This document shows, piece after piece, positions 1,641 through 44,755 of a stretch of 47,772 nucleotides of DNA; position 1 is the first letter of the stretch, and every line of letters starts with the position of its first letter. This DNA comes from a virus (taxonomy: Duplodnaviria > Heunggongvirae > Uroviricota > Caudoviricetes), in the IMG/VR virus record IMGVR_UViG_2698536610_000001; one strand, given 5' to 3'. The notes under the pieces are model-generated. The model searched no databases. It was not told the origin of the DNA and worked only from the letters and a program-made list of their open reading frames with translations. Made by a program: the position numbers and the translations under genes.

Positions 1641-4112
1641 TTAAGAATCAGCCTGACTCGGGATCAGTTTTTGCCAGATAGCTGAAACGTATTTTGCCTG
1701 GTAACGGGCGTCATCAAGTGCATTATGGCGCTCACCTTCGAATGGAATAGCCGTTCTGGCATCGAAGTCTATGGCTTTCCCCAGCTCAACGATTGTGCGT
1801 ACATCGCGATCGTTGTAGTAACGCCACGGGCAGGGGATTCCCTGCCGTTCGTATGAACGGCGCAAAATCGTGTTGTCGAAGTTGGCTCCATTTCCCCAGA
1901 CATGAACAAAAAATTCACCGGAGTTTTCGTCGATAAATTCCCGCAATTGTAACAGTGCATCATCTAACGGGATTTCATCGGTCATAATGGCAGATTGCGC
2001 TTCGCGTGATTGTTTAAGCCACCATTTAATGGTGTCACGATCAATGACTCCGCCAGCAGTTTCCAGATCGATAGTCTTACTAAATTCCGGTCCCATATCT
2101 CCGGTTTGCGGATCGAAAAATATTGCACCTATTGAGATAATCGGGGCATCGGGATTTTTTCCCATGGTTTCAAGGTCGATCATCAGATGAATCCCCGCTC
2201 TGCTGGTGGATGTGAGATTATGATGACCGTTCGTCTTAATTAAGGGATCTGACGCCTCGCCAGTTTCACTATCGCTGGCATGATGCTGATTGCCGCCAGT
2301 GTTCTCCTTGTGCTGATGCGCAGTGCCTTCCATTTCCTCCGGATCATTTTCCTGAACTTCAGGCTGATTCTCTCCATCGAATATTTCCTGGTATGTTGCG
2401 TCACCCATCACCGCACCACAATCAGGGCAGTTGCCGCCACCGCTATGACCGCAGGCGGTGCAGATCTTTTCCGGTTCCTGTTGCACTACTGGTTCAGGTT
2501 GTTTCGTTTCTGGCTCGTTTTGTTGCGTATTTGGGCTGTTTTGTTCCGCTTTCTGGTCGTTCTGTTCCGTTTCTTGCTGGTTCTGGTTCACAGAATCGAG
2601 GGTCTGGATCCCCTTAACCCATTTCGGATCATTCGGGTCGCTAATCCCTTCAACAAATTCACCACGTGATACTGCAAGCAGTTCATCGGCGTCAGGCTGG
2701 CTGATATTGGCTGCCTGCATAATTTTGTTTACTTCGTCAGAGGTAACTTTTACTGACCCTGGTTGTGCGGTCGTGTCAGATGCACCAGTATTTTGTTGTG
2801 AACCTGAGTATGTACCGTTTTTGCGGGCGAAATATTCTTCTTTCGTGATTTCAGTAGCCCCAGCAGACAGCGCCTTATCCAGACCAGAAAGTTTGTTTGC
2901 GCGACCGTATTTTTCGCCATCCTTGTCGGTGAAGAGGAAGTAGAACGGCCCCTCACGTTCTACAGATGGTTCGACTTCCACTTTGCATTCGGTTTTTTCG
3001 TTGTCTGGAATTGCCGTTTCCACTGCATCAGTTTCTGGTACTGGCGACGAGAGAGTATCAGTTGCGCTCTGATTTGTTCCTTCATCTTCAAACACGCCCT
3101 TTGTAGTCAGGTATTCAGTAATGTATTTGTTCAGTGCCACAGGGTCTTTGTGAATGTCGATCGGACGTTCACGGACAAGGCCAAAAATAGTCTGGCGGTC
3201 GTAGCGAAGGGCATCAGGCTGTTTGCGCATTGATGCCGAGATACGCTTCCAGTCTTCGCGGTCGTTGTCGATAACTTCTTTTTTTGCCCAGCGATGGATG
3301 CTGCCGTCAATGTTTCCGGCATCCACATCACCAGGCCAGAGAGCGTAGGCCAGTTCGTCATCCAGTGTTTTCCATGTCTGCTTGTATTCGCGATGAATGG
3401 CAGCAATGACCGGGTTGATTTTTCCTGTTGAATTTTCAGTGTGCTGTTGATTGGCTCTGGCGCGGGCGAGATCAACAACAGACGTGTATTTTCCGGCTTC
3501 CTTGCGTTCACCTTCGCGACGTTTTTTCCAGATGCGCATCTCTGCCTGAATTTCGGGCCATTTGGCACCAGGCTTACATTTATGCTTAACCCACCCGATG
3601 GCATGCAGCTTAAGCTCCGGATACATAGCGTTAACTTCTGGCATTTTCATCAACGCTTCAACGATATGGCCGTCGAATGTTGCCATGTCTTCCTGCAACA
3701 ATTCCTGTGCGCTAATCACCATATCAACAGTGATGTTTTCACATGTGTGGAACTTAACCATGACAGCGTTCTGTACTTCAGGGGCCAGCTTGTCAAAAGT
3801 GACGTTCATCGGATCGGATTCAGTCTCAACCGGAACAAAAGAAGCAGACGCCTCATCCCAGCGGTTTTCCTGCATATATTCAGCATCCCAGGAATCGAGG
3901 GCAGGGCGGGGTATACCGGGTTTATCCTCGCAAACAAGAAATTTATAAGCGCAGTCCTGAGCAGCCGGATAATGTTCCAGGAATTGCCAGTGAAATTTTG
4001 CTCGAGCACGGCGTTCGTCGCCAGCTTCAATGGCTGTGGCTACAGCCACAGCGCCTTCTTCCCTTGTTGCCAGTTCGTCAGGAATAGCGGCGCAAATAAA
4101 GACTTTACTCAT
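1641..4112 (-). CDS. Prophage exonuclease with C-terminal DnaQ-like DEDDh 3'-5' exonuclease domain and internal Cys4 zinc ribbon
   Basis: 823-aa ORF; C-terminal motifs MIDLETMG (Exo I), HVWGNGANFD (Exo II), HNALDDARYQ (Exo III); CTACGH…CPDCG zinc-ribbon motif; acidic low-complexity linker. Often annotated as exodeoxyribonuclease VIII in databases, but the domain seen here is DnaQ-like. Confidence 0.8.
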   Translation of the reverse strand: MSKVFICAAIPDELATREEGAVAVATAIEAGDERRARAKFHWQFLEHYPAAQDCAYKFLVCEDKPGIPRPALDSWDAEYMQENRWDEASASFVPVETESDPMNVTFDKLAPEVQNAVMVKFHTCENITVDMVISAQELLQEDMATFDGHIVEALMKMPEVNAMYPELKLHAIGWVKHKCKPGAKWPEIQAEMRIWKKRREGERKEAGKYTSVVDLARARANQQHTENSTGKINPVIAAIHREYKQTWKTLDDELAYALWPGDVDAGNIDGSIHRWAKKEVIDNDREDWKRISASMRKQPDALRYDRQTIFGLVRERPIDIHKDPVALNKYITEYLTTKGVFEDEGTNQSATDTLSSPVPETDAVETAIPDNEKTECKVEVEPSVEREGPFYFLFTDKDGEKYGRANKLSGLDKALSAGATEITKEEYFARKNGTYSGSQQNTGASDTTAQPGSVKVTSDEVNKIMQAANISQPDADELLAVSRGEFVEGISDPNDPKWVKGIQTLDSVNQNQQETEQNDQKAEQNSPNTQQNEPETKQPEPVVQQEPEKICTACGHSGGGNCPDCGAVMGDATYQEIFDGENQPEVQENDPEEMEGTAHQHKENTGGNQHHASDSETGEASDPLIKTNGHHNLTSTSRAGIHLMIDLETMGKNPDAPIISIGAIFFDPQTGDMGPEFSKTIDLETAGGVIDRDTIKWWLKQSREAQSAIMTDEIPLDDALLQLREFIDENSGEFFVHVWGNGANFDNTILRRSYERQGIPCPWRYYNDRDVRTIVELGKAIDFDARTAIPFEGERHNALDDARYQAKYVSAIWQKLIPSQADS

Positions 4113-4751: not shown

Positions 4752-4809
4752 AAAAAGGGCGGCAGAGCAGTCACGGAGTAAAACTGATACCGCCAAACGT
4801 CACCAGAAA
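4752..4809 (-). ncRNA. dicF: DicF small RNA (ftsZ-targeting antisense sRNA) with 3' hairpin and U-tract
   Basis: Minus-strand sequence TTTCTGGTGACGTTTGGCGGTATCAGTTTTACTCCGTGACTGCTCTGCCGCCCTTTTT is readable directly; GGCGG…CTGCCGCC stem followed by a T-run; lies between ydfC and dicB as in Qin. Confidence 0.75.
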
Positions 4810-5652: not shown

Positions 5653-5729
5653 GCTGACCTCATTTCCCCTTAACGCTGGGGTAGCGGAACTGTTTGCTGA
5701 GAACACCGTGCGGTGTGTTGATGCAAATA

Positions 5730-5758
5730 AGATTAGCTATGACTAACATATAGGTCAA
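5730..5758 (-). promoter_or_regulatory. Putative leftward early promoter (dicB-operon promoter analogue): -35 TTGACC, 17-bp spacer, -10 TAATCT
   Basis: Read on the minus strand; the spacer and -10 overlap the TTAGCTATGACTAA operator-like palindrome at 5733-5746. Confidence 0.45.
5733..5746. promoter_or_regulatory. Operator-like site TTAGCTATGACTAA (TTAG-N6-CTAA)
   Basis: Near-palindrome of the same TTAG…CTAA family that recurs four times around dicA. Confidence 0.5.
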
Positions 5759-5769
5759 GTGATTTTGTA

Positions 5770-5783
5770 TGTTATGGCTAACA
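5770..5783. promoter_or_regulatory. Operator-like half-palindrome TGTTATGGCTAACA
   Basis: Related to the other TTAG-N6-CTAA sites; between dicA stop and ydfA. Confidence 0.35.
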
Positions 5784-5818
5784 TAATTGATGTGGTAAAA
5801 GATAACTCATTGATGATG

Positions 5819-6226
5819 TTATCTTTTATTTGTCCGCTGACGGGCTTTTAGTAATTCTTCAAAGAGTTTATTGAAGTTTTTTACTCGAGCTCGCATTTCG
5901 GCGAGCTGGGTATCCTGTTCTGATTCTGGCAGTGCATTAAACAGCTCAAGGAGCTCTAGTTCTTTGGGGGATAAGGCAACTGGCTTCTCAACAGGTGGTG
6001 TTGGTTGCTTGTCTTCATCGCCAAATAGAATCCATGTTGGTGAGCATTGCAATACTTTGCTGAGGGCAAAAAGGTTCTTCCCTGTAGGTTCACTATCATC
6101 CCGTTCCCATTGTGATACAGACACATGGGAGATTTTCAGGGCTTTAGCAAGAGACCTTTGGGTGTGTTTGAGGTTTTTCCGACGATACCTAATGCGTTCG
6201 CCGATAGTTAAATTTTTTGTTTCCAT
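5819..6226 (-). CDS. dicA: DicA-type HTH (XRE family) repressor, CI-like immunity repressor
   Basis: 135-aa ORF METKNLTIGERIRYRRKNLKHTQRSLAKALKISHVSVSQWERDDSEPTGKNLF… matches remembered DicA; divergent from dicC; palindromic operators on both sides. Confidence 0.85.
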   Translation of the reverse strand: METKNLTIGERIRYRRKNLKHTQRSLAKALKISHVSVSQWERDDSEPTGKNLFALSKVLQCSPTWILFGDEDKQPTPPVEKPVALSPKELELLELFNALPESEQDTQLAEMRARVKNFNKLFEELLKARQRTNKR

Positions 6227-6228
6227 AG

Positions 6229-6242
6229 TTAGCTAATGCTAA
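6229..6242. promoter_or_regulatory. Operator-like palindrome TTAGCTAATGCTAA
   Basis: TTAG-N6-CTAA inverted repeat 3 bp beyond the dicA start codon, in the dicA-dicC intergenic region. Confidence 0.5.
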
Positions 6243-6248
6243 ATCGTA

Positions 6249-6277
6249 TTGACTATGTTTTTGTTAACATCTATTTT
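6249..6277 (+). promoter_or_regulatory. Putative rightward early promoter for dicC: -35 TTGACT, 17-bp spacer, -10 TATTTT
   Basis: Consensus -35 hexamer; the -10 region is overlapped by the 40-bp perfect palindrome. Confidence 0.45.
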
Positions 6278-6305
6278 GTTAGTCATGACTAACAAAATAG
6301 ATGTT
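6266..6305. promoter_or_regulatory. 40-bp perfect palindrome AACATCTATTTTGTTAGTCA|TGACTAACAAAATAGATGTT with core TTAGTCATGACTAA; putative main operator
   Basis: Read directly; the first 20 nt are the exact reverse complement of the second 20 nt; ends 4 bp before the dicC ATG. Confidence 0.6.
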
Positions 6306-6309
6306 TTAA

Positions 6310-6540
6310 ATGCTTAAAACTGACGCTCTTTTGTATTTCGGTTCAAAAACAAAACTTGCACAAGCAGCAGGTATTCGTTTGGCTTCGCTTTATAGCTGGA
6401 AAGGGGATTTAGTTCCCGAAGGTCGCGCGGTGCGTCTACAGGAGGCATCTGGCGGGGAGCTTCAGTATGATCCCAAAGTTTATGATGAATATCGTAAGAC
6501 GAAGCGGGCGGGGCGGTTGAACAATGAAAATCACTCCTGA
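6310..6540 (+). CDS. dicC: DicC-type Cro-like regulator
   Basis: 76-aa ORF MLKTDALLYFGSKTKLAQAAGIRLASLYSWKGDLVPEGRAVRLQEASGGELQYDPKVYDEYRK… matches remembered DicC; first gene of the rightward operon. Confidence 0.8.
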   Translation: MLKTDALLYFGSKTKLAQAAGIRLASLYSWKGDLVPEGRAVRLQEASGGELQYDPKVYDEYRKTKRAGRLNNENHS

Positions 6541-7045
6541 ACAGGCTCGTGAGGCTCTGGATGCCTGGATATGTCGACCAGGAATGACACAGGAGCAGGC
6601 GACGATATTAATCACTGAAGCATTTTGGTCTTTGAAAGAGCGCCCGAACATCGATGTTCAGCGTGTCACAGATGAAGGTGGCGCGGTTGATCAGCGAGCG
6701 CTTGGCGTTAATCGAGTGAAGATATTCGAACGCTGGAAGGCTATTGACACCAGGGATAAGCGTGAAAAGTTCACGGCGCTAGTGCCTGCAATTATGGAGG
6801 CTATCCGGATTAGTGATTTCAGGTTGTATCGTGAAATTAGTGACGGGAAAAGCATTACGTACATGATCGCCGGGTTAAACAAAGAATATGGCGATGTGGT
6901 GGAGTCCGGACTGCTTTTTGCTGATCCTGCCGTAGTGGATCGTGAAACTGACGAACTTATAGAAAAAGCAATTGCTTTCAAACTTGCGTATCGACAGCAA
7001 TACCAACAAAAAGCTGGATGGAATTATGAGCCTTCTTTTTGCTGA
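6524..7045 (+). CDS. Conserved phage early protein in the cII position (possibly YdaT-family)
   Basis: 173-aa ORF overlapping the dicC 3' end by 17 nt; family assignment is tentative and from memory. Confidence 0.45.
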   Translation: MKITPEQAREALDAWICRPGMTQEQATILITEAFWSLKERPNIDVQRVTDEGGAVDQRALGVNRVKIFERWKAIDTRDKREKFTALVPAIMEAIRISDFRLYREISDGKSITYMIAGLNKEYGDVVESGLLFADPAVVDRETDELIEKAIAFKLAYRQQYQQKAGWNYEPSFC

Positions 7046-7991
7046 ACGCCCACTGGTTATAAACACACAGCTTGCGATGAAGATTGGCTTAAATGAAGCC
7101 ATTGTGTTGCAGCAGTTGCATTACTGGTTGAGAGATACTAATTCCGGCATGGAATGTGATGGTGTTCGCTGGATTTACAACACAACGGAACAATGGCTGG
7201 AACAGTTCCCATTCTGGTCAGAGTCAACTTTAAAGCGCGCGTTTGCAAGTCTGAAAACGCTGGGGCTTTTGCGTTGTGAAAAGCTCAATAAATCAAAGCG
7301 CGATATGACCAATTTCTACACGATCAACTATGGGAGCGAGCTTTTAGATGGTGGCAAATTGAGCGAATCCATCGGTTCAAAATGCGCCGCTCCATCAGGT
7401 CAAAATGACACGATGGAAGAGGTCAAAATGAAACGCTCCATTGGTTCAAAACGACCCAATGTCATCGGGTCAAAATGGCCTGATGATCTTACAGAGAATA
7501 CAACAGAGATTACTACAGAGAATAAAAACACTTTTCGTCCGGAAGCTTCGCAACCGGACCCGCAGACGACTGAACAGGATTTTTTAACCCGGAACTCCGA
7601 CGCGGTTGTGTTTAGTGCGAAAAAACGCCAGTGGGGTAGCAGGGAGGATTTGGCGTGTGCGCAGTGGATCTGGGGGCGGATCGTGGGTCTCTACGAACAG
7701 GCAGCCAGTGATGATGGCGAGATCATGCGACCAAAAGAGCCTAACTGGACTGCCTGGGCCAATGACGTGCGCACAATGCGGATGCTGGATGGCAGAAGCC
7801 ACAGACAAATTTGCGAAATGTTTGGTCGGGTACAGCGAGATCCATTCTGGGTAAAAAACATCATGAGCCCGTCAAAGCTTCGTGAAAAATGGGATGAACT
7901 GGTCATCCGTCTGGGGCGTTCGTCTGTACAGCGTTGTGTGAATCATATTTCTGAACCGGATACAGAAATTCCGCCTGGTTTCAGGGGATAA
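7026..7991 (+). CDS. Replication initiator (O-like replisome organiser) with internal origin iterons
   Basis: Start at the internal ATG (MSLLFAERPLVIN…) overlapping the upstream stop; the protein carries IGSK repeats encoded by the iteron array; no separate P/DnaC-like loader follows. Confidence 0.6.
   Translation: MSLLFAERPLVINTQLAMKIGLNEAIVLQQLHYWLRDTNSGMECDGVRWIYNTTEQWLEQFPFWSESTLKRAFASLKTLGLLRCEKLNKSKRDMTNFYTINYGSELLDGGKLSESIGSKCAAPSGQNDTMEEVKMKRSIGSKRPNVIGSKWPDDLTENTTEITTENKNTFRPEASQPDPQTTEQDFLTRNSDAVVFSAKKRQWGSREDLACAQWIWGRIVGLYEQAASDDGEIMRPKEPNWTAWANDVRTMRMLDGRSHRQICEMFGRVQRDPFWVKNIMSPSKLREKWDELVIRLGRSSVQRCVNHISEPDTEIPPGFRG
7374..7478. repeat. Array of five iteron-like direct repeats (GGTYCAAAAYG), putative phage origin
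   Basis: Repeats at about 7374, 7398, 7421, 7443 and 7468, spaced 22-25 bp; followed by A+T-rich ACAGAGAWT repeats at 7490-7530; lies inside the initiator gene, as lambda ori lies inside O. Confidence 0.6.
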
Positions 7992-8031
7992 GTGTTGATT
8001 TCAGGTCATGAGGTAATTTTAAGGGGGACTT

Positions 8032-8463
8032 GTGGCAAAAGTTTTTACACAAGAAGAGCGGGAAAAAATTAAAGGGCAGGTGGTGGAACTCGTGCGCCAG
8101 AGCGGTCGTGAGACGCTACGGCAACTGGAAGCTAAAACAGGTGCGACAAGATATCTGATGAGCGTTCTTGCCAGAGAGCTGGTTGCCAGTGGCGATGTAT
8201 ACAACTCCGGCTACGGGTTATTCCCCTCTGAACAGGCGCGTAAGGACTGGCAAAACGCCCGCAAAAAACTCTCGAGGGCAAAGATGAAGAAAACAGCTGT
8301 GGTTGATCCGGACCTTATCTGGTCGTTACCTGATGGAGAAATACGCCGCTACGACAGTCGCCTAAACATAATCTGTCGCGAGTGCCGGAAGACTGAAGTT
8401 ATGCAGCGCATACTCGCATTCTATCAGGGAAATGCTCGATATCTATTGAAGCGACGAGATTAA
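8032..8463 (+). CDS. Hypothetical phage protein (possible DNA-binding protein), GTG start
   Basis: 143-aa basic ORF after the replication gene; start codon uncertain. Confidence 0.4.
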   Translation: MAKVFTQEEREKIKGQVVELVRQSGRETLRQLEAKTGATRYLMSVLARELVASGDVYNSGYGLFPSEQARKDWQNARKKLSRAKMKKTAVVDPDLIWSLPDGEIRRYDSRLNIICRECRKTEVMQRILAFYQGNARYLLKRRD

Positions 8464-8786
8464 AGAGCATTAGTTCAGATGTGAATTGACATTTTCGTGG
8501 CACAAGATTAGCGCTAGCGTGGTCGTTTGGTTTGTGCCAAGAGCGGATAATGCTGACATTCCTATGCACTAATTAACGCAGAGCAAGCCAGTTAGTTGGT
8601 TATGGAAGTAAGTTGTAGCCAGCAACTATCACCATCGGAGATATTTAGGGGGATGCACTCTAAGTTGTAGTTACTTTATAATGTCACTTTCAAAGCGGAA
8701 GCTTGTACAAAAGATGGATAAGCTTTTGTATAGTATGGGATTCAAGAATCACTAAAAGATGACAACAGTACTTACAGGATGTGGCT

Positions 8787-9026
8787 ATGATCCGAATTAT
8801 GATTAGAATATTTTCTTTGACATTCGTTGCTTGCGCTGGCTTTGCTGCATATCACTTCAATAGTGTGCCATTGATGTTCACTTCTGGTAGCTTTCTTGTA
8901 ACATTTTTAGGTACATTTATTGTTAATAAAAAAAGTTCAGGGCATACAATAATTCAAAAAAGCGGTAGCCATTCAAAAAATAATCAGACGGTCGTTTTTG
9001 GAAATAATGAAAACAAGCGAGGCTGA
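8787..9026 (+). CDS. Small membrane protein with two predicted TM helices (cassette gene A)
   Basis: ATG 8787 with AGGA upstream; hydrophobic stretches IFSLTFVACAGFAAY and FTSGSFLVTFLGTFIV; stop 2 nt before gene B; AT-rich. Confidence 0.5.
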   Translation: MIRIMIRIFSLTFVACAGFAAYHFNSVPLMFTSGSFLVTFLGTFIVNKKSSGHTIIQKSGSHSKNNQTVVFGNNENKRG

Positions 9027-9028
9027 TC

Positions 9029-9625
9029 ATGGTTGGTGTTACTCAAAGGTCAGGGAATTACTCACGTAATGTGCAGGTGGTTGTCGATTCTAACTCTGTT
9101 GATATTATAAAGTCTCCATCGATTTTTATGGATCTTGTTGGTATTTTAGTTGATTCGAATGTTATTGATCCTCGTACAAACAATGACTACGAGCCATATG
9201 ATATTGAGAATAAAATAGACTTCAATGATGTTATAAAACATAGAGAACGTATTGAAGGGTTCTATCTATATTCTTCGATGATAGATAAAGCGTATGAAAC
9301 ATTAAATGAAAGTATGCCTACTGCTAAGGAAACGGCACTGAAAAGCATCAATTCACGATATCTTGATTGTCAAGGAGATTTATTGCTTAAACATAGAGAA
9401 GCGTATAAGAGCTGCAAGGATGCTCAGGAACGGAATAATTTAAAGATTCAATTGGTAAGAGAGTTTGCAGATTGGATAATAGACAGTGTAATAGAGCACA
9501 TCATTAAGAAATGCTTAAATTCTCTTATGGCAATGAATTACACAAGCGAAGAAATCGAATGCCATGCTTCTTTTATCGTTTATCATGCATTCGTAGAGTG
9601 TAAGATTCTGGAAAAACCAATATGA
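9029..9625 (+). CDS. Hypothetical 198-aa protein (cassette gene B)
   Basis: Tightly coupled to A upstream and C downstream (ATGA overlap); no motif recognised. Confidence 0.55.
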   Translation: MVGVTQRSGNYSRNVQVVVDSNSVDIIKSPSIFMDLVGILVDSNVIDPRTNNDYEPYDIENKIDFNDVIKHRERIEGFYLYSSMIDKAYETLNESMPTAKETALKSINSRYLDCQGDLLLKHREAYKSCKDAQERNNLKIQLVREFADWIIDSVIEHIIKKCLNSLMAMNYTSEEIECHASFIVYHAFVECKILEKPI

Positions 9626-9858
9626 TTATCTCTGATGTAACAAAACCAAGCCAAACCTTGTATTACCTGGGGGCTCGGTTATTAGAATGCATGAGTTCAA
9701 ATGCTTATTCGTATGTTGATATTATAGACTTGTATAATGAATTCAAATCTAAAAATAACAACTCTTCATTCACGCAATATATTTACACTTTAAATTGGCT
9801 ATATTTATTAGGCCTGGTTGATGCTAACGAAAATGGAGATTTGATATTATGTTTTTGA
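9622..9858 (+). CDS. Hypothetical 78-aa protein (cassette gene C)
   Basis: Overlaps B by 4 nt and D by 10 nt; small, probably helical. Confidence 0.5.
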   Translation: MIISDVTKPSQTLYYLGARLLECMSSNAYSYVDIIDLYNEFKSKNNNSSFTQYIYTLNWLYLLGLVDANENGDLILCF

Positions 9859-11573
9859 AACGGCTAATAGTCAGTTCTTTCAGGCTTGGAGTGATTCGTG
9901 ATATCGAATTTCACATTGGCGTTAATTTGATTATTGACCGAAACACCTCCAGCAAAGAGCAAACTGGAAATGGTGTGGGAAAAACTACTGTATTAAGAGC
10001 TTTAGATTTTTGTTTTGGAGCAGAACAACTGAATTTTTATACCGATCCTGAATTCAAGAAAGAAAATTCGGTTATAAAAAATTATTTGATAGAGAACGAG
10101 ATTGAGTTTTGTTTAATTCTCACAAAAGATTTGAATAATAAAACTGCACCAGTAATAAAAATTAAGCGTAAAATTACATCTGAGACTAATAAAACGAAGG
10201 TTATAGCCTCAATAAATGAAGAGTCCTATACGAAGGCTAAAGATTTCAACGAGGCTTTAAAAAGAACATTATATCTTGATTCCGCGATAAAACCGACCAT
10301 ACGAGAGATTATGGGACGTGTTATTCGAAATACGCATGACAAGATGTCGAACGCATTAAAAACGATAAAAATGGGTTCTAATACACAATATGAAACGTTA
10401 AATCTGTTTATGTTTGGGTTCGGTAACTCACAGATTCTGGATGAAAAACAGTCAGTGACTAAAGCCTATAAACTGGCGAAATCCGATTATGAAGTAATTA
10501 CTCGCCATCGCTCAAAGAATGCTTTGGAACAAGCTATTGCAATTATAAATAGAGATATTATAGCACAAGAAGAGTTAATTTCTAATTTTCAAGTGGCAGA
10601 CTCTTATAATGATATGCTTGCTGAGTTAAATGAGTTAAAAATTAAAATTAGTGAAGTTTCTATCATACTATCATCTTTGGAGTTTAAGCAAAAATTAAAC
10701 GATAAGGCTATACTAGATCTGGAAAAAAGTCATGAAAATATAAATACACTAGATCTACAGAAGTTGTACTTAGAAGCAACTGATCGGTTAGGTAACTTAA
10801 ACAAAGAGTTTACTGAGCTACTTTCGTTTCATAATAAAATGCTTGTAAAAAAAGCTGAGTTTATTAGAAAACAAATGCAGCCAGTGCTGCAAGAAATTTC
10901 CAAATATAAAGATGAACTAAATAACTTATTGACTCAAGAATCAGAGCTTTTAAAGAGTTTGTCTTCGCATGGGACATTGGCAGACCTGCAAATAATGCAA
11001 AAAAAATTAAATTCATTATTTGAAGAAAAAGGTGGGCTTGAAGCTGGACTACTTCAAATCCAAGAGATGGAGAACAACTTTAATATACTGAAAGCAAAGT
11101 TTAATGATGTGTCAGATAGATTAAAATCTAAACTTGACGATTTTAACAAACGTCTTGCGCTATTCAATTCCTATTTTTCTTTATATACTAAAAAATTATA
11201 TCAGGATGAATATATTCTTTCCTATAAAGATTCCTCCGGTTCTTTCGTTTTTACCATTGAACCTTTAGGAACTTTGCTCACATCAGGTAATCAGGGAGAA
11301 GGAAAAAAGAAAGCCCAGGTTGCCTCTTTAGATTTTGCCTATTTATCTGTCCAGGAGTCTTTAGAAGCCAGAACACCACGTTTTATAGCTCATGATGGAA
11401 TTGAGGCAATTCATGTAAATCAAATAAATAAGTTATTCGAGATAGCTTCGGGGATTAATGGTCAATATATATTGGCTATTCTTAAAGACAAGTTGGAGAA
11501 TATTGATCAAGACTTCATCAATAATAGTGTTGTGCTTGAGCTTGGGGAGGACGATAAGTTTTTTAGGCTTTAA
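9849..11573 (+). CDS. ABC-type P-loop ATPase with long central coiled coil (SMC/Rad50-like architecture) (cassette gene D)
   Basis: Walker A GNGVGKTT at aa 40-47 (nt 9966-9989); heptad-rich helical region roughly aa 220-440; C-terminal signature-like TSGNQGEG, Walker-B-like RFIAHD and a following His. Confidence 0.7.
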   Translation: MFLKRLIVSSFRLGVIRDIEFHIGVNLIIDRNTSSKEQTGNGVGKTTVLRALDFCFGAEQLNFYTDPEFKKENSVIKNYLIENEIEFCLILTKDLNNKTAPVIKIKRKITSETNKTKVIASINEESYTKAKDFNEALKRTLYLDSAIKPTIREIMGRVIRNTHDKMSNALKTIKMGSNTQYETLNLFMFGFGNSQILDEKQSVTKAYKLAKSDYEVITRHRSKNALEQAIAIINRDIIAQEELISNFQVADSYNDMLAELNELKIKISEVSIILSSLEFKQKLNDKAILDLEKSHENINTLDLQKLYLEATDRLGNLNKEFTELLSFHNKMLVKKAEFIRKQMQPVLQEISKYKDELNNLLTQESELLKSLSSHGTLADLQIMQKKLNSLFEEKGGLEAGLLQIQEMENNFNILKAKFNDVSDRLKSKLDDFNKRLALFNSYFSLYTKKLYQDEYILSYKDSSGSFVFTIEPLGTLLTSGNQGEGKKKAQVASLDFAYLSVQESLEARTPRFIAHDGIEAIHVNQINKLFEIASGINGQYILAILKDKLENIDQDFINNSVVLELGEDDKFFRL

Positions 11574-11859
11574 GATTTGTAATTTGATAGATATGTAGAT
11601 ATCATTTTTCTCGCTCAAAACTGACAGTCAGATTTGAGCGAATTGCTTATGTAAGTATTTCGCAGAATCATGCCATTTATATTTATTAGAACATACGTAC
11701 TTTAAATGTGGGAGGCTGTCATGTTGGTTCTTAAATGTTCGCTGACTATTGCGGTGGTGCGGGCAATTTATTGTTCTGTTATTCTTATGGATCGCCTTTC
11801 TGACTGATTTCATATTGGCGAGATAACGGGAGTTAAGTAGAATGCCTGCGGGTGCTTGA

Positions 11860-12018
11860 GGCTATCTGCCTCGGGCATGAATACCAACGGCAGATAGAGA
11901 AAAGCCCCAGTTAACATTACGCGTCCTGCAAGACGCTTAACATTAATCTGAGGCCAATTTCATGCTAGACACATGTAGGTTAGCCTCTTACGTGCCGAAA
12001 GGCAAGGAGAAGCAGGCT
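11860..12018. promoter_or_regulatory. hok/mok mRNA leader; expected location of antisense Sok RNA (not mapped)
   Basis: Inferred from hok/sok locus organisation; mok ORF begins at 11962. Confidence 0.35.
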
Positions 12019-12174
12019 ATGAAGCAGCAAAAGGCGATGTTAATCGCCCTGATCGTCATCTGTTTAACCGTCATAGTGACGGCACTGGTAACGAGGAAAG
12101 ACCTTTGCGAGGTACGAATCCGAACCGGCCAGACGGAGGTCGCTGTCTTCACAGCTTACGAACCTGAGGAGTAA
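12019..12174 (+). CDS. hok: Hok/Gef family type I toxin (mok in-frame extension from 11962)
   Basis: MKQQKAMLIALIVICLTVIVTALVTRKDLCEVRIRTGQTEVAVFTAYEPEE; the 70-aa upstream extension MLDTCRLASYVPKGKEKQA… resembles Mok; GGCGAGGGA-GAAA-TCCCTCGCC stem-loop at 12182-12203. Confidence 0.8.
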   Translation: MKQQKAMLIALIVICLTVIVTALVTRKDLCEVRIRTGQTEVAVFTAYEPEE

Positions 12175-44174: not shown

Positions 44175-44755
44175 TGGCATTCAGAATGAGTGAACAACCA
44201 CGGACCATAAAAATTTATAATCTGCTGGTCGGAACTAATGAATTTATTGGTGAAGGTGACGCATATATTCCGCCTCATACAGGTCTGCCAGCAAACAGTA
44301 CCGATATTGCACCACCAGATATTCCTGCTGGCTTTGTGGCTGTTTTCAACAGTGATGAGGCATCGTGGCATCTCGTTGAAGACCATCGGGGTAAAACGGT
44401 TTATGACGTGGCTTCCGGCGACGCGTTATTTATTTCTGAACTCGGCTCATTACCGGAAAATGTCACCTGGTTATCCCCGGAAGGGGAGTTTCAGAAGTGG
44501 AACGGCACAGCCTGGGTGAAAGATGCAGAAGCAGAAAAACTATTCCGGATCCGGGAGGCGGAAGAAACAAAAAACAGCCTGATGCAGGCAGCGAATGAGC
44601 ATATTGCGCCACTTCAGGATGCTGTAGATCTGGAAATCGCAACGGAGGAAGAAAACTCGTTGCTGGAAGCCTGGAAAAAGTATCGGGTGTTGCTGAACCG
44701 TGTTAATACAACAACTGCACCGGATATTGAATGGCCAGTAGCACCTATAGGGTAA
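44174..44755 (+). CDS. tfa: Tail fibre assembly protein (Tfa)
   Basis: 193 aa; ATG overlaps the stf stop; conserved C-terminus …[27 protein letters not shown]. Confidence 0.85.

Follow-up and report, generated by a model that had tools for sequence, protein, structure and literature searches.

A replication module with an intragenic repeat array

The window analysed here, the whole 47,772-nucleotide (nt) stretch of the virus record IMGVR_UViG_2698536610_000001, is a nearly complete lambdoid prophage extending from an integrase gene through the tail-fibre genes, of a common E. coli lambda-like type. Its replication initiator gene begins within the cII/YdaT-like gene, overlapping the end of that gene by 20 nt, and its coding sequence contains a repeat array followed by an A-rich block, a region (7370–7535) that is very probably the vegetative replication origin of the prophage, built like ori-lambda. 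The product is named 'hypothetical protein' in RefSeq. The whole protein matches PHROG 391 'replication initiation O-like' (E value, E, 1.6e-91), a Pfam search of it returned no family at E<=0.01, and the initiator genes of relatives carry the same annotated ATG start. The features of the module are as follows, with domain limits in amino acids (aa) and confidence as the predicted local distance difference test (pLDDT).

7026–7991, plus strand: replication initiator gene, 321 aa from the ATG at 7026, from the list of open reading frames (ORFs)
7053–7340, plus strand: N-terminal winged-helix-like domain, presumed iteron-binding (aa 10–105; pLDDT 65–83; H-H-E-E-H-H-E-E)
7350–7556, plus strand: predicted disordered linker (aa 109–177; pLDDT <30)
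7370–7392: iteron 1, CATCGGTTCAAAATGCGCCGCTC, only the left half-site conserved
7393–7415: iteron 2, CATCAGGTCAAAATGACACGATG, dyad-symmetric, 8/10 arm positions
7416–7438: iteron 3, GAAGAGGTCAAAATGAAACGCTC, core only
7439–7461: iteron 4, CATTGGTTCAAAACGACCCAATG, dyad-symmetric, 8/10
7463–7485: iteron 5, CATCGGGTCAAAATGGCCTGATG, dyad-symmetric, 8/10
7488–7535: A-rich block, three 12-bp ACAGAGAWTACW repeats (7490–7525) and AAAAACACTTTT, presumed DNA-unwinding element
7563–7910, plus strand: lambda-O-like helical C-domain (aa 180–295; pLDDT 62–75)
7905–7988, plus strand: DnaT-like flexible C-terminal tail (aa 294–321, ...VNHISEPDTEIPPGFRG; pLDDT <50)
8032–8463, plus strand: DUF977/'LygF'/Ren-like gene (143 aa), in place of a P-type loader

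Iterons and the A-rich block

The array spans 7370–7485 in units of about 23 bp, corresponding to nt 345–460 of the 966-nt gene. An earlier note on this DNA had described five direct GGTYCAAAAYG repeats about two helical turns apart within the initiator ORF. The number, the place and the intragenic position of the repeats were borne out, but the literal pattern matches only copies 1 and 4, and the core GKTCAAAAYG was adopted in its place; its five copies start at 7375, 7398, 7421, 7444 and 7468, giving a measured spacing of 23/23/23/24 bp. In the whole window this core has 6 matches against 0.65 expected, a count reached in 0/100 shuffles. Units 2, 4 and 5 are dyad-symmetric (CATCrGkTCA-AAA-TGrCCyGATG) with 8/10 arm positions paired, and units 1 and 3 keep the left half alone. 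Tandem Repeats Finder reported no second period-23 array in the window. DnaA boxes number 4 in the window versus 5.1 expected; none lies in the origin, and the nearest relaxed match is at 8043.

The iterons are followed, as the same note had proposed, by A+T-rich ACAGAGAWT repeats, with copies at 7491, 7503 and 7515 and a 12-bp period that was also found by Tandem Repeats Finder. The block at 7488–7535 has a G+C content (GC) of 0.29 and 23 A versus 11 T on the top (coding) strand, and it is the GC minimum of the initiator gene in a 40-bp sliding window (0.325). Judging from the relatives, the A-rich block doubles as a mosaic joint where different C-terminal modules are attached; megablast matches to Klebsiella phages stop at window position 7521, within it.

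Since 23 bp is not divisible by three, the cores occupy all three reading frames, and the peptides encoded by cores 1–5 are GSK, GQN, VKM, GSK and GSK. The IGSK peptide attributed to the repeats is therefore found three times (aa 116–119, 139–142 and 147–150), but not at copies 2 and 3. We also made a codon alignment of 12 related genes and scored synonymous-codon identity where the amino acid was the same, which gave 0.52 for the N-domain, 0.88 for the iterons, 0.95 for the 12-mer block and 0.45 for the C-domain. Amino-acid identity among the same relatives was 0.58 in the iteron part versus 0.77 in the N-domain. That synonymous sites are more conserved in the iterons than in the N-domain while amino acids are less so indicates selection on the nucleotides, and this, together with the occupation of all three frames, identifies the iteron array as a DNA feature and not a peptide repeat.

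Comparison with ori-lambda

In lambdoid phages the origin lies midway along O and is made up of iterons and an AT-rich tract (PMC7466680), and the resemblance to lambda ori that the earlier note had drawn was upheld in detail. The first iteron lies at nt 349 of lambda O and at nt 345 of this initiator gene; the iterons are spaced by 20/24/23 bp in lambda and share the centre TCAAAAYG with those described here; and the lambda A-rich block (46 bp, GC 0.26) is similar in size and strand bias to the present one of 48 bp. The C-terminal domains are homologous, that of lambda O being its P-interacting half: aa 147–294 of the initiator and aa 135–270 of lambda O are 34% identical over 148 aa (BLASTP, E 1e-26), and tblastn located the C-domain in 349 phage records, lambda, 933W and HK140 among them. 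Ori-lambda, the origins of Stx phages (six iterons) and this array have in common 4–6 dyad-symmetric iterons about 20–24 bp apart. The sequence marks of a lambda-type intragenic origin are found here, namely a position between N- and C-domain codons, five direct repeats about two helical turns apart, three of them dyad-symmetric, and an AT-rich tract after the last iteron.

The differences are equally clear. No sequence similarity to lambda O is detectable in the N-domain, which also lacks a match to Pfam Phage_rep_O, the iteron arms are CATCGGG/CCTGATG here versus ATCCC/GGGAT in lambda, and the A-rich block is, unlike that of lambda, built of three 12-bp repeats. At the other end of the protein, the lambda tail ...TNTDWIYGVDL contrasts with the DnaT-like tail, and a P gene is absent here. 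On this comparison, we read 7370–7535 as an origin of the lambda type whose specificity module differs, ordinary in kind and new in specificity.

Domain organization of the initiator

The AlphaFold2 model of the initiator has a mean pLDDT of 57 and is of low confidence overall, and all Foldseek matches lie above E 1e-3, so both were used for the domain layout only. In this model the origin DNA falls exactly in the codons of the predicted disordered linker between the two domains. For the N-domain, which is the most conserved part of the initiator across relatives, the best but weak PDB fold matches are the N-domains of RepA_N initiators (pSK41 RepA; 4pql and 5kbj; E 6e-3, template modelling score, TM, 0.57), and further winged-helix proteins also match weakly. 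RepA_N-type Rep genes likewise carry iterons within their coding sequence. The RepA_N systems differ in showing no sequence-family match and in belonging to Gram-positive plasmids and not phages, and the fold match is below usual significance and comes from a low-confidence model.

Relatives of the array across hosts

A scan of viral contigs gave only copies 97–100% identical, which carry no divergence information. A scan of one genome per species yielded 80 loci with relatives of the N-domain, and the array was surveyed in 46 relatives' genes, mostly from gammaproteobacterial genomes (L numbers below denote individual loci). Most of the 46 contain 3–6 repeats, mostly 23 bp apart, at about nt 320–460 of the gene. 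Escherichia, Citrobacter and Klebsiella have GGTCAAAATG as the repeat, Pantoea has GCAAnTTGC or CAATTTGTCC, and Photobacterium has CATGTGATCA; other repeat sequences occur as well. In most of the 46, including genes with different iterons, the array is followed by ACAGAGA in two to six copies at intervals of mostly 12 bp; in Pantoea phage AH07 the ACAGAGA block is nearly identical in DNA despite different iterons. The iteron sequence thus changes along with the N-domain lineage, while the 23-bp array is kept and the 12-mers are unchanged.

Initiators with the PF09524 'conserved phage C-terminus', such as those of Pantoea phage AH07 and Klebsiella Kp4882-3, belong to the same N-domain family and have the 23-bp array at the same position. 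They share with this initiator the identical ACAGAGA 12-mers, a DnaT-like ending and the absence of a loader, and differ in having another C-terminal domain and, in the Pantoea phages, other iterons as well.

A DnaT-like tail at the end of the initiator

The last 28 residues of the initiator are 53% identical to residues 147–178 of E. coli DnaT (BLASTP, E 2e-8). Within them, the motif SEPDxxIPPGFRG is identical to DnaT at 11/13 residues and forms the extreme C-terminus of both proteins. The tail also matches the DnaT chains 2ru8, 6aep and 9zbt in the PDB and is the sole DnaT match in the window (E 3e-6). In DnaT itself the tail is nearly invariant among 105 orthologs and highly flexible (PMC5778457); that of the initiator is predicted to be disordered. 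Annotations of the RAST style label these phage proteins 'Primosomal protein I'. However, only the tail is common to the two proteins: DnaT has no origin-binding domain, and the initiator does not match the DnaT family over its full length, which comprises an oligomerisation domain at the N-terminus and a three-helix domain binding single-stranded DNA, the NCBIfam DnaT model matching at positions 158–179 of 179 with a score of 16.9 versus a cutoff of 201. Homology of the C-domain to the DnaT three-helix domain was considered and rejected, since the hhalign probability, at first 96% for the PF09524-type domain, fell to <1% with the tails trimmed.

In the literature searched we found neither a role for the extreme C-terminus of DnaT nor a link between DnaT and phage initiators.

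Absence of a helicase loader

The earlier note had seen no P or DnaC-type loader after the initiator, and this holds for the entire 47.8-kb window, in which tblastn seeded with lambda P, E. coli DnaC and several further DnaB and DnaC sequences found no homologs of the three (best E 0.09). Such single-gene modules have been recorded: phage LLS and 34 of 314 Enterobacterales lambdoid phages encode an O homolog only, and the passages on this class state that none has been studied and that its replication 'is not yet understood' (PMC12315714, Genome Res 2025). As far as those passages go, the O-only modules resemble the present one in having a single O-homolog gene without helicase or loader, they name mEp460_4F5 among these phages, and they do not mention a DnaT-like tail (PMC12315714). 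The mEp460_4F5 initiator (L006) is 70% identical to the one described here.

The next gene, previously taken to encode an unknown 143-aa protein, does encode 143 aa, but the product is a recognizable family member: it matches Pfam DUF977 (PF06163) over its full length (E 1.5e-28, 100 bits versus a cutoff of 22.1) and PHROG 142 'Ren-like exclusion protein' (E 4e-45), and a short BLAST match links it to the C-terminus of lambda Ren (E 7e-6). No functional study of DUF977/LygF was found in the literature searched. A gene of about 130–165 aa comes directly after the initiator in 19/23 tail-type loci, and its start codon often overlaps the stop codon of the initiator gene. In 15/23 of them (among L094–L126) this gene is PerC-like, as is gene 46 of Pantoea phage AH07; comparison of the DUF977 and PerC-like proteins gave an hhalign probability of 33%.

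The ending of the initiator and the presence of a loader

Initiators were scored as tail-bearing if they ended in [IVLT]P.G[FW][RK][GS], a few additional residues at most being tolerated. Across 45 loci, P, DnaC or DnaB was encoded within ±5 kb on any strand in 0/22 tail-bearing loci versus 12/23 with other endings. Counting the first three downstream ORFs, where L120 was also classed as tail-bearing, a loader was present in 0/23 versus 12/22 (Fisher p 2e-5, a value that overstates independence because the loci are phylogenetically related). Local family counts were the same as the Pfam counts (DnaB_C 8, IstB_IS21 7, Phage_lambda_P 3), and eight further tail-bearing phage loci gave a loader in 0/8.

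Natural exchanges of the ending were found on three backbones:

Lambda-O-like backbone: tail and no loader in this window, L006, L094 and SKA5; other ending, then P, in L093, L128, lambda and HK140
PF09524-type backbone: tail and no loader in L007, L008 and L097; other ending (like that of L093), then P, in L100
L116-type backbone: tail, then DUF977 and no loader in Tritos and 640R1; ...SGFSEQDYGxxDCNW, then DnaC+DnaB, in L116, L118, L124, L125 and L127

These swaps speak for the ending, and not the domain, as what tracks the helicase-loading partner. In the third case, the last 20 residues of the Tritos/640R1 initiator are 100% identical to the tail described here, DUF977 is next and no loader was found, while its C-domain is 47–54% identical to those of the ...DCNW-ending initiators that precede DnaC+DnaB.

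Three further observations were made on these initiators. Tritos (L169, 2993–4063) and vB_EcoS-640R1 (L170) have an unrelated initiator with an intragenic array of its own at nt ~390–465, consisting of GTCACG about five times and then ACAGATAAAGAT three times. Initiators adjoining a lambda-type P (L093, L100, L128, L171 and lambda, L004) end in acidic Trp-containing tails (GGHWNSPEAWENTL, KDWADNGLGM, TNTDWIYGVDL), possibly a P-specific equivalent of the DnaT-like tail. Finally, the initiators of L104–L108 and L114 (Xenorhabdus, Providencia) and L096 (Edwardsiella) are 353–385 aa long and have other endings (...QAAKEQGGKDAQ), with no P, DnaC or DnaB detected nearby; a second class of loader-less initiators, beyond the DnaT-like tail, may be represented here.

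Gene neighbourhood and prevalence

The other features annotated in the window are listed below.

5–1297: integrase gene, one end of the prophage
1641–4112, minus strand: large RecE/exonuclease VIII-like gene
4757–4808, minus strand: DicF small RNA (Rfam, above gathering score)
5819–6226, minus strand: cI-like repressor gene, immunity region
6310–6540: cro gene, immunity region
6524–7045: cII/YdaT-like gene, immunity region, upstream of the initiator gene
9029–9625: CTD10 protein, ABC-3C cassette
9622–9858: middle component MC6, ABC-3C cassette
9849–11573: DUF2326 ATPase, ABC-3C cassette
11850–12024, plus strand: sok antitoxin RNA (Rfam, above gathering score), of a hok/sok-type module adjoining the defence cassette
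44517–44715, plus strand: IS009 RNA (Rfam, above gathering score)

A promoter and terminator scan of 5700–9100 gave signals not above chance. The RecE/exonuclease VIII-like gene contains, in its low-complexity acidic region, a 21-bp tandem repeat (2499–2582, four copies, 74% matches). The ABC-3C defence cassette (9029–11573) has a GC of 0.33 versus 0.48 for the window and occupies a slot just past DUF977, which looks like a cargo hot spot because related phages hold methyltransferases or other cargo there.

The initiator gene together with the 143-aa gene (7026–8463) is 97% identical in DNA to phages HannyBb, mEp460_ev081 and PhiR42_1, and 1587 of 5426 complete E. coli genomes contain at least 80% of this stretch. 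Deposited phage genomes with the module are those of HannyBb, mEp460 variants, PhiR42_1, Tritos and SKA5, and their deposition as phage genomes indicates that the carriers are working phages. Gene copies 96–100% identical were also seen on contigs of metagenome-assembled genomes labelled Bacillota, Veillonella parvula and Collinsella (L090, L092, L148), probably through mis-binning or contamination.

Proposed mechanism and alternatives

We propose that the initiator would be made from rightward early transcription, and that dimers of its N-terminal winged-helix domain would bind the five dyad-symmetric 23-bp iterons, each with an A-tract centre, to form a bent complex resembling the O-some. 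This complex would melt the adjoining A-rich 12-mer block at 7488–7535. With P, DnaC and DnaB all missing from the phage, host DnaB–DnaC must be brought in; the last ~20 residues of the initiator, which copy the flexible C-terminal tail of host DnaT (SEPDxxIPPGFRG), would dock on whichever host primosome component the DnaT tail contacts, whereupon host DnaB–DnaC would arrive. The binding and melting steps are proposed by analogy with lambda and are supported by the constraint data, and the docking step is drawn from the association between tail and loader. Taken as a whole, an explanation that joins a lambda-type origin in linker codons to a host helicase recruited by the tail appears probable to us. 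The proposal that the DnaT-like tail takes the place of the loader is more tentative, and we put it just short of an even chance.

Several points weigh against this explanation. The AT-richness of the A-rich block is no more than moderate (GC 0.29–0.33), a GC as low as 0.35 being found in 40-bp windows elsewhere in the gene. Beyond the tail there is no similarity to DnaT, the profile match being lost on trimming, and the shared ancestry of the loci tempers the statistical association. As 10 or 11 tail-less loci also have no detectable loader, the tail is not the sole route. No host partner for the tail of DnaT is named in the literature searched, and a 2026 cryo-electron microscopy (cryo-EM) paper suggests the N-terminal domain of DnaT, not the tail, as the candidate recruiter of DnaB/DnaC.

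The most serious alternative, although an unlikely one, accepts the origin and has the helicase come by the route of iteron plasmids: the C-domain, possibly with DnaA, would contact host DnaB–DnaC, the tail being incidental or concerned with turnover or regulation. Iteron-plasmid Rep proteins do use host DnaB–DnaC. The roughly ten related loci with neither tail nor detectable loader fit this route and imply that loader-less replication is not strictly tail-dependent, and the preference of the cryo-EM paper for the DnaT N-domain points the same way. Against it, DnaA boxes are not in excess, the only match near the origin being the relaxed one at 8043, and the same backbones pair with P or DnaC+DnaB under other endings and with nothing under the DnaT-like ending. 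Because loader presence switches with the ending on the same backbones, irrelevance of the tail is hard to hold.

It is improbable that the small downstream gene (DUF977, or the PerC-like ~140-aa gene of Pantoea-type loci) encodes the missing helicase adaptor or loader, even though a gene of this size so regularly follows tail-type initiators, often with stop and start overlapping, and in phages of the Tritos type a single DNA module, ~90% identical and comprising DUF977 together with the codons of the tail, is joined to a different initiator. The DUF977 protein matches the Ren-like PHROG and the C-terminus of lambda Ren, and lambda ren lies after P and is dispensable for replication. Moreover, homology between the two small-protein families is not clear, Pantoea-type loci having the other protein, and the Pfam search detected no ATPase or known helicase-binding family.

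Still less probable is recombination-dependent, PriA-mediated initiation using the RecE-type exonuclease, with the array as a regulatory, titration or incompatibility element and not a firing origin. The large RecE/exonuclease VIII-like gene would be in keeping with such a route, a DnaT-like tail would suit one linked to PriA, and the paper on O-only phages concerns, in the passages considered here, recombination-dependent growth of lambdoid phages (PMC12315714). But nowhere in the gene is constraint at the DNA level stronger than in the array and the adjacent 12-mers, and the order expected of a firing origin, iterons and then the A-rich block, is kept across distant hosts. Lastly, that the repeats are a by-product of a repetitive low-complexity linker peptide, with the origin elsewhere, is very improbable in spite of the threefold IGSK and a TENT/TEIT tetrapeptide repeat, given five cores in three frames, three palindromic units that are meaningless for a peptide, synonymous sites far more conserved than in the structured domains although the amino acids of the repeat region are less conserved, and no other iteron-like array in the window.

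Implications for lambdoid phage replication

We did not find, in the literature searched, a description of a variant such as this one, which combines the lack of a loader with a tail that mimics DnaT. Under the proposed explanation, the DnaT-like tail may explain how such phages replicate without a helicase loader of their own. More broadly, and with somewhat less assurance than the replacement of the loader by the tail, the C-terminal tails of initiators could be interchangeable adaptor peptides that set the helicase-loading route. If so, acidic Trp tails would go with phage P or DnaC+DnaB, and a DnaT-mimicking tail would let the origin take over the host restart or DnaB–DnaC machinery with no phage loader. 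This would account for the O-only lambdoid phages and give the conserved tail of DnaT a testable role.

Naming the initiator gene and its origin would improve the annotation of prophages, and the tail, with its perfect negative association with phage loaders, makes O-only replication experimentally approachable. The same approach could reveal the part played in replication restart by the tail of DnaT, invariant and flexible as it is.

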